Positions 543 through 1,366 of a stretch of 64,000 nt of DNA are shown here, piece after piece. This DNA comes from a phage: sequence record PZ452589.1, one strand, 5' to 3'. The translations under genes and the position numbers were made by a program. The number at the start of each line of letters is the position of its first letter. Position 1 is the stretch's first letter. The notes beneath the pieces were generated by a model that saw nothing but the letters and a program-made list of their open reading frames with translations, did not search any database and was not told where the DNA came from.

Positions 543-719
543 TTATGCTTTCTGCTTACCAAAACGAGAAGCATCATCTCGAAGAACCGCACGTGCTCGG
601 CGCATGATCTTCTCAACAGTTTGATTGATACGAGAGTTCGACCCACGCTTGTAGCCAGCGCGTTTAGAATCACCAACTTTCTTTTCAACTGCTTTCTTTG
701 CTTTAGCTTGTTTTGCCAT
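543..719 (-). CDS. small highly basic protein, 58 aa (MAKQAKAKKAVEKK..)
   Basis: Lys/Arg-rich ORF; start chosen at internal ATG 717-719 with AGAGAA SD-like sequence; track ORF extends to 761. Confidence 0.5.
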   Translation of the reverse strand: MAKQAKAKKAVEKKVGDSKRAGYKRGSNSRINQTVEKIMRRARAVLRDDASRFGKQKA

Positions 720-1117
720 TATAAATTCTCTTTTAAATGAAAATGCAGGACTTATTGGCATTGCCTGCGCAAGCCCTCAAGGGGAACATAGGTTTTTTGA
801 TATTTAACGACCAGGATAACCATAAACCCGTCATCATACCTTATAGCTCTTATCTGTTGCACACCGTTAGCTTAAAGGTTCCGGGTTCGATTTCTCGAGG
901 ATAAGATATATACTGATGGATATATAGGCCTTGAGGCGTACTCCCGATTGGCCATCACCTCGGGGTAGCATGCACTTGCCGCTATAAGAATAACATTCAA
1001 GAGGTACACCGTAAAACTGCCGGGGTCTTAAAACTATAATGATTCGCAAATCATTAATCAGACAGTTCGACGGCTCCTCGTTTTAACTTCACACTAAGGC
1101 AGTGACTCTCCAATAAA

Positions 1118-1366
1118 TTACTTCAGTGTTACCACAAAGTGACGAACTGCTTTTCGTGCAGCAGAAGCCAGAGGCTTAGCATATTTAAGTTCATCTTTTT
1201 CCTGAAGCTCAGCAGCTAATGCAGTTTGAGCAGGATTCAGATGTTTGAAATAACGCAGGATTTCAAGAGCTTCGGCTTCAACATCAATAGATGCGCCATA
1301 GTTTTCGTGACCATTATTCCATGCGTTTCGTTGCAGTTCAAGAGCGTGTTGTAATTGTTTAATCAT
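1118..1366 (-). CDS. rIII: rIII lysis-inhibition accessory protein, 82 aa
   Basis: 82-aa ORF matching remembered T4 rIII length and its position immediately downstream of gene 31. Confidence 0.85.
   Translation of the reverse strand: MIKQLQHALELQRNAWNNGHENYGASIDVEAEALEILRYFKHLNPAQTALAAELQEKDELKYAKPLASAARKAVRHFVVTLK

Follow-up and report, generated by a model that had tools for sequence, protein, structure and literature searches.

Two kinds of RNA-only counter-defence are known, namely pseudo-ToxI and the RNA anti-CRISPRs, and ToxI is a 36-nt repeat RNA that serves as the type III antitoxin of the ToxIN abortive-infection system. The purine and lysine riboswitches have aptamers built on multi-helix junctions, with kissing contacts between adjacent hairpin loops. 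The put RNAs of HK022 and EAR are cis-acting processive antiterminator RNAs that are self-contained and have no dedicated expression platform, and the T-even phages produce the structured stable RNAs rnaC and rnaD (species 1 and 2 RNAs), of approximately 120-140 nt. Several small ribozyme classes have been reported with a patchy, cassette-like distribution in phage intergenic regions. The ToxI repeat has the sequence AGGTGATTTGCTACCTTTAAGTGCAGCTAGAAATTC (PMC8610362), and the "pseudo-ToxI" of PhiTE neutralises ToxN (PMC3475682).

Here we analyse a 64,000-nt stretch of phage DNA (the window), which is from a Tequatrovirus (T4-like) genome and carries a structured RNA domain of 145 nt at 843-987 (minus strand), between the genes 30.9 and rIII. 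No description of this RNA was found in the literature when searched by locus, topic and sequence string. We file it as an undescribed family of phage-borne structured noncoding RNA cargo, and it could yet prove to be a new functional class.

The intergenic region between 30.9 and rIII

The locus belongs to a minus-strand gene block comprising 30.8, 30.9, rIII, gp31, 31.1, 31.2 and cd, and a 901-nt query around the gap is 100% identical in many Escherichia and Yersinia T4-like phages. Gene rIII occupies 1118-1366 (minus), and 30.9 occupies 543-719 (minus), or 543-761 with an upstream ATG. The start of 30.9 is ambiguous in the ORF lists (719 or 761), and the ATG at 761 has no Shine-Dalgarno sequence. 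We favour the start at 719, on the basis of the T4 annotation (58 aa) and of a Shine-Dalgarno sequence, AAGAG, ahead of this ATG on the minus strand. The noncoding gap extends over 720-1117 with the T4-annotated start and over 762-1117 with the upstream ATG. The 30.9 product is a basic protein of 58 aa, to which Pfam and PHROGs assigned no function. Its leader (720-769, minus) contains the stem GCAGG...CCUGC (763-767 with 745-749); the leader, like the Shine-Dalgarno sequence, was read from the sequence. After 30.9 lies a strong intrinsic terminator (518-539, minus), GGACUCC-UUCG-GGAGUCC followed by a U-run, which accounts for the weak Rfam matches Atu_C8 and Phe_leader.

The first-pass annotation of the window had described 762-1117 as a GC-rich island that is free of credible ORFs. 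The noncoding gap is real, and no credible ORF lies in it; the 60-aa ORF at 867-1049, which that annotation had already distrusted, is not conserved, nor are the other short ORFs. Across the 145-nt core, none of the six frames is free of stops in any of 23 distinct homologues, and a protein-coding gene was rejected as a candidate in the absence of any open frame conserved across them. The GC enrichment holds against the genome, with GC fractions of 0.438 (762-1117) and 0.469 (843-987) compared with a window mean of 0.355, placing gap and core within the top 1.4-1.5% of equal-sized windows of the 64 kb. It was overstated with respect to the immediate neighbours, however, as 30.9 (0.446) and rIII (0.41) are nearly as GC-rich.

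In GenBank, short ORFs are annotated over the RNA on either strand, under the names "hypothetical protein", "protein rIII" or "lysis inhibition accessory protein". Examples are found in OK274152.1 (L002; 1753-2050), MK327945.1 (L001; 1753-2050) and KX258185.1 (L004; 2415-2558). In view of the lack of a conserved frame, such ORFs are very likely spurious.

No Rfam 15 family was matched in the gap. A scan of 1.1 kb returned nothing in 762-1117 at E ≤ 10, narrowing the scan to 166 nt still returned nothing at E ≤ 10, and the copies of the RNA in loci L004 and L009 gave no match at E ≤ 1.

Secondary structure of the RNA

Besides a decayed tRNA, an intron remnant and a regulatory region, the first-pass annotation had listed a structured noncoding RNA as a reading of the gap, and this reading is now strongly supported for 843-987 (minus) by covariation, conservation and a covariance-model match. 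The model, R1, was built from 20 distinct copies and with cmsearch detects the domain at 175.6 bits (E = 1.4e-37), the sole match in the window. RNAalifold on a MAFFT alignment gives 44 pairs, 21 of which show compensatory double changes. Pairs were further counted in a model-guided alignment of 24 distinct sequences, with the pseudoknot added to the structure. In this alignment 99.1% of 1123 cells are paired, compared with 26-41% once the partners are slid by 1-3 columns. Changes on both sides occur in 24 of the 48 pairs, compared with 8.0 ± 1.9 in shuffles, and none of 500 shuffles reaches any of the measures, although these shuffle statistics overstate independence, the 24 sequences being from few lineages. 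The controls with slid partners, like the variety of pair types, nevertheless speak for a real signal. Covariation is seen in seven of the eight helices, the kissing loop included, and the 3-bp P2 is invariant.

The predicted fold is centred on a four-way junction of P1 to P4 with zero unpaired linker bases; all of its elements lie on the minus strand. P1 pairs 981-985 (AUAGC) with 843-847 (GCUAU), with compensatory changes in four of five pairs (AU/UA/GC/CG); it corresponds to inverted repeat I4 and can be extended to 8 bp (981-988 with 840-847). The P2 arm (927-980) begins with three invariant pairs, GGC:GCC (978-980 with 927-929), and continues through a conserved internal loop, AAGUGCAU (970-977) opposite CUCAAG (930-935), whose consensus is AAGKGCAU / CUCAAG. 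The arm ends in P2a, a 12-bp hairpin (958-969 with 936-951) in which six of the 12 pairs covary. Its loop L2a, UGAUGG (952-957), kisses the loop L3, CCAUCA (914-919), over 6 bp. L3 caps the P3 hairpin (907-926), a 7-bp stem with four covarying pairs, a 6-nt loop and a closing U·G, which is found in 22 of the 24 sequences and is compatible with the minus strand only. Complementarity between the kissing loops, YGAUGG and CCAUCR, is complete, and they covary, with the pair types GC/AU/UA and GC/AU. The sixth kissing pair (CG 15, UA 7, AG 1) was yielded by an all-against-all search of column pairs, a search too noisy, with few lineages, for other use.

The remaining domain, P4 (848-906), opens with the P4 helix (900-906 with 848-854; four of seven pairs covary), which leads into a three-way junction formed with the P5 hairpin, the P6 hairpin and the invariant junction strand GCAACA (855-860). 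P5 (887-898; three of four pairs covary) has a GAAA loop here, and GAAA, UAAA or GUAA (GNRA-type) across homologues. P6 (882-886 with 861-866; one of five pairs covaries) closes L6, a conserved 15-nt loop (867-881). In total, approximately 35 unpaired positions are invariant. Because the alignment contains 47 G·U cells and no A·C cell, the RNA strand is assigned to the minus strand, in the sense of the flanking genes. Judged from covariation and conservation across the homologues, the 145 nt demonstrably constitute a conserved, elaborately folded noncoding domain on this strand.

The short palindromes pointed out in the gap are real and coincide with the covarying helices. The structure was resolved only by comparative analysis; folding the sequence by itself gave no useful signal for either strand (z-scores of -1.4 and -1.1). 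A tRNA T-loop-like motif, GGGTTCGATT, had been noted at 883-892; it is indeed present on the plus strand, but it is the antisense of the P5/P6 boundary (the P5 3' strand and the P6 5' strand) and is not conserved, most homologues having GGGTCCGATT at its position. An alternative pairing of CCUCAAGG in the RNA with CCUUGAGG in the downstream hairpin (inverted repeat I3) was rejected, as it shows no covariation across homologues and is a coincidence of two near-palindromes.

Occurrence in phages and hosts

BLAST over 50,697 phage records indicates that T4 and many relatives match the gap ends alone, approximately 200 nt in total. The 135-145-nt core is kept in 408 phage records, compared with 1011 records that match the gap, and approximately 40% of the Enterobacterales T4-like records matching the gap carry the RNA. 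It is present in a single copy per genome. Among 41 rIII loci in IMG/VR, 15 carry it, in every case on the rIII strand and downstream of this gene. Pattern scans of IMG/VR and metagenomes gave a few dozen loci, mostly on contigs of T4-like size or fragments thereof, and all of those searched with the model were positive.

The BLAST identities of the core are 91-96% in Jiaodavirus and Karamvirus, 80% in Erwinia phage Cronus and 69% in EcS1 and, for a match of greater length, approximately 85% in Moonvirus. Aligned globally, the core shares 90-92% identity with the copies of KpV477 (Jiaodavirus), SonariX and Moon (Moonvirus), whereas in the same comparisons the flanking genes reach 71-74% (rIII), 66-68% (gp31) and 64-87% (30.9). 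By these identities, the RNA is conserved above the neighbouring protein genes in most comparisons.

The SonariX record (PQ898399.1, L005, Enterobacter phage) is a 248.7-kb "partial genome" whose taxonomy stops at "Viruses". It includes a typical T4-like cd-gp31-rIII-30.9 block with the 145-nt RNA and may be a chimeric or concatenated assembly.

The host and plasmid sequences searched gave no homologue. None was detected at E ≤ 10 in 5,426 complete E. coli genomes, and PLSDB plasmids gave just two chance matches of 30 nt. In GTDB representative genomes a strict pattern had no match, and a looser pattern had at least 120; among the matches listed (80 loci), all were model-negative. Since no host or plasmid counterpart was detected, simple mimicry of a host RNA is unsupported for the 145-nt RNA.

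Mobility of the RNA domain

Alignment with T4 reveals an empty site, with approximately 155 nt of the gap missing between ...CTTGAATGT and ATGATGACGG... and flanks that are approximately 97% identical. In other Tequatrovirus-like contigs the same junction (window 842/988) is occupied by an unrelated conserved module of approximately 50 nt, CTATCACGCGTCAGAAAAAGGTTATCTGTCTAAGTCGTGG (L043:~1875-1925, L049, L054, L048 and L060). The junction can be regarded as a cassette slot with three alleles, because the 145-nt RNA, the ~50-nt module or nothing is found there. Placement varies among the T4-like genera. The distance from the RNA to the 30.9 start ranges over 88-181 nt with differing intervening modules, that from the upstream (rIII) stop codon over approximately 10-130 nt, and the order of the RNA relative to the other modules of the gap changes.

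A further copy, 84.5% identical, was found in PKM.Lu.22.1, a 76-kb podophage of the Grimontviridae that is related to Salmonella phage 7-11. It sits between a conserved 257-aa gene, for which Pfam and PHROGs gave no function, and the gene of an ECF-type sigma factor. In the alignment the insertion is clean, approximately 152 nt long and has ends that coincide with P1; the RNA is absent from the sister phage PKM.Hi.22.6 (98.4% identical), from 7-11 and from GAP52. The insertion has no target-site duplication and lies 3 nt from a native ToxI-like unit; approximately 40 nt downstream of it follows an intrinsic terminator, ahead of the sigma-factor gene. The RNA is not accompanied by an expression platform when it moves.

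These alignments demonstrate a discrete P1-bounded cassette that is present or absent at one site in near-identical genomes, and likewise its horizontal transfer into an unrelated phage family. From the clean insertion and the variable placement in T4-like phages, it follows that the RNA is an autonomous module passing from one virulent phage to another, unrelated one.

Companion modules in the gap

Directly after the rIII stop codon, a degenerate ToxI-like unit is found at 1079-1113 (minus). The match in the window is weak, with 20 of 31 positions in common with ToxI, and 10 of 2000 shuffles score as well. At the same position the identity is 25/34 in T4, 30/34 in KpV477 and 32/36 in some T4-like phages, and the ToxI-like unit of phage 7-11 is identical to ToxI at 33 of 35 positions; for these copies of the relatives (25/34 to 33/35), none of 2000 shuffles scores as well. 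Loci with ToxI-like units include L054 (~1750-1785), L004 (~2645-2680) and L084 and L083 (SSB-like to sigma-factor gap); T4-like phages have a single unit after the rIII stop, and 7-11-like podophages have one in the corresponding gap. Tandem arrays that match the 7-11 version occur on 73 small Enterobacterales plasmids, with an identity of 95-100% except in four records, and on one such plasmid a ToxN/AbiQ toxin gene lies immediately downstream of the array. Two tandem ToxI-like units were observed on a viral contig (L087:1872-1930). The hairpin after rIII had also been considered as a type I-F CRISPR repeat, a candidate that was dropped because the ToxI match is much stronger.

Between this unit and the 145-nt RNA, a spacer (988-1078, minus), approximately 97% identical to T4, includes the hairpin AAUGAUU-UGCG-AAUCAUU (1037-1056, minus; inverted repeat I5). 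On the 30.9 side lies the module B hairpin (793-838, minus), composed of AUGAUG, stem, loop GUUnnnGGUUAUC, stem and tail CGUUAAAUAUCAAAAAAC, which T4 also has. Its 25 distinct versions are spread over several genera, with a stem that changes yet stays complementary as judged by eye, and where it lies with respect to the 145-nt RNA varies from genus to genus. A short GC hairpin follows at 770-787 (minus), with the conserved flanks GUWCCC-loop-GGGCUUG; the window has a single exact copy. All the T4-like relatives that were examined have this hairpin, which lies downstream of the RNA here and upstream of it in EcS1 and PS49.

From this arrangement the gap resembles a store of small RNA modules, and one or more of them would belong to a known RNA-based counter-defence class. 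The minus-strand RNA, its absence in T4 and the mosaic of RNA modules with the ToxI-like unit had all been missed in the first-pass annotation.

Putative function and alternatives

We tentatively favour the reading that the 145-nt RNA acts autonomously as an accessory RNA and is not a regulator of 30.9. It would be read out as part of the rIII-30.9 transcript and would work as RNA itself, by binding a protein or a small molecule or by catalysis. Its tertiary fold would act autonomously on some host or phage factor, and its function would be accessory, dispensable in T4, and other than the control of 30.9. The most likely role would be to interfere with a host factor, for example a protein of RNA metabolism or an RNA-targeting defence, given the ToxI-like antitoxin mimic in the same gap. 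This shared location is circumstantial, as the unit in the window is degenerate and lies 91 nt from the RNA. Within the autonomous reading, a specifically counter-defence role is possible, and we hold it to be rather doubtful. The approximately 35 invariant unpaired bases speak against the autonomous reading, as so many are seen more typically in riboswitch aptamers and ribozymes than in RNAs that simply bind a protein.

A cis-acting RNA, that is, a riboswitch-like sensor, a put/EAR-like antiterminator for the passage of RNA polymerase through downstream terminators or a structure for the stability or processing of the rIII/30.9 mRNA, seems unlikely and is the best of the alternatives. The RNA is always in sense orientation inside a transcription unit, and its build is aptamer-like, with a P1-closed multi-helix junction, kissing loops and many invariant unpaired bases. 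The PKM.Lu.22.1 copy precedes the terminator of the sigma-factor gene by approximately 40 nt, and a strong terminator follows 30.9 in the window. However, spacing, modules and their order differ among genera with no conserved expression platform, the flanks are unchanged whether the RNA is present or absent, and the downstream genes are unrelated (30.9 and the gene of an ECF-type sigma factor). T4 retains the same 30.9 leader and terminator without the RNA, and the four-way junction lacks unpaired bases that could make a pocket. Compared with a riboswitch, the P1-closed, conserved structured domain is present, whereas a conserved platform and a recurrent class of regulated genes are not. The proposal in the first-pass annotation that the gap may be a regulatory region is likewise unlikely for the core as a regulator of 30.9, given that the core comes and goes with its flanks unchanged and that its spacing to 30.9 varies.

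A new self-cleaving or otherwise catalytic RNA that would process the polycistronic transcript is improbable to a greater degree. The four-way junction, the conserved internal loops, the tertiary loop-loop contact and the approximately 35 invariant unpaired bases would suit a ribozyme, as would the patchy, cassette-like occurrence in phage intergenic regions. Against it, no Rfam ribozyme family was matched at E ≤ 10, and each genome has one copy.

It is very improbable that the domain is a DNA-level element (MITE-like, or a recombination or replication site) or a small protein-coding gene. P1 forms terminal inverted repeats and the cassette shows insertion/deletion polymorphism, as such an element would, but covariation extends to the internal helices and the kissing loop, with G·U pairs that just one of the strands allows. 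Moreover, the P1 sequence varies freely, unlike transposase-bound ends, and the insertion in PKM.Lu.22.1 has no target-site duplication. The short ORFs placed over the RNA in GenBank records would suit a small gene, but stops occur in every frame. A decayed tRNA or tmRNA or a group I intron remnant, suggested by the T-loop-like GGGTTCGATT at 883-892, can be practically dismissed: ARAGORN finds no tRNA or tmRNA gene on either strand of 500-1400, Rfam has no tRNA or intron match, the motif is on the wrong strand and variable in homologues, the fold is not a cloverleaf, the empty site of T4 is itself noncoding, and strong purifying selection with compensatory changes would be unexpected in a remnant.

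Returning to the autonomous accessory RNA, a broader proposal can be made from the arrangement of the gap, which we regard as speculative and unlikely in its full form. The rIII-30.9 gap may be an island of shuffling RNA counter-defence cargo, composed of the ToxI mimic and structured modules. The 145-nt RNA may be a new protein-free anti-defence effector, sequestering or inhibiting a protein of host immunity or RNA metabolism, or else a new ribozyme, and it may spread as a P1-bounded cassette between unrelated virulent phages.

Comparison with described RNAs

The RNA has escaped notice in viruses that are among the best studied, as T4 lacks it and annotation pipelines leave the region blank or place spurious ORFs in it. 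Its combination of a covarying fold with a 6-bp kissing loop, high conservation, clean polymorphism and cross-family transfer is rare for a phage noncoding RNA, and the natural empty site of T4 provides a ready isogenic test bed. It would represent a new class if it turned out to be a ribozyme or to sense a ligand. Beyond pseudo-ToxI and the RNA anti-CRISPRs, phages may have further RNA-only devices for counter-defence or host manipulation, and this hypothesis is concrete and testable because the 145-nt RNA shares its gap with a ToxI-like mimic.

Like the orphan phage RNA motifs (Weinberg and Breaker lists; PMC10690425), the 145-nt RNA is defined by covariation and borne by phages; unlike them, it is not among the Rfam 15 families. 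The main text of PMC10690425 (Fremin and Bhatt 2023) does not mention T4-like phages. With rnaC and rnaD of T4, it has in common that a structured RNA of similar length is encoded by T-even phages, but it lies at another locus and is absent from T4. No homology was detected either: cmsearch with filters off over T4 68.5-73.5 kb, which holds the tRNA genes, rnaC and rnaD, gave a best score of 8.4 bits, off rnaC and rnaD.

The put RNAs and EAR are likewise self-contained structured RNAs, and the PKM.Lu.22.1 copy, placed just upstream of a terminator, recalls them; there is no similarity in sequence or model, however, and the 145-nt fold is much larger and different. The purine and lysine riboswitches share with it a P1-closed junction, a loop-loop Watson-Crick helix and invariant unpaired bases, which is a resemblance of architecture. 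The 145-nt RNA differs from them in having an extra P4-P5-P6 domain, with no Rfam match, no junction linkers, no conserved expression platform and no common regulated gene.

Compared with ToxI and pseudo-ToxI, the 145-nt RNA is nonrepetitive, four times as long as a ToxI unit and folded through a junction and kissing loops, and, unlike pseudo-ToxI, it has no detectable host or plasmid counterpart. Like pseudo-ToxI, it is noncoding RNA cargo of phage intergenic regions, patchy in distribution and horizontally exchanged (PMC3475682), and a ToxI-like unit resides in the very same rIII-30.9 gap.
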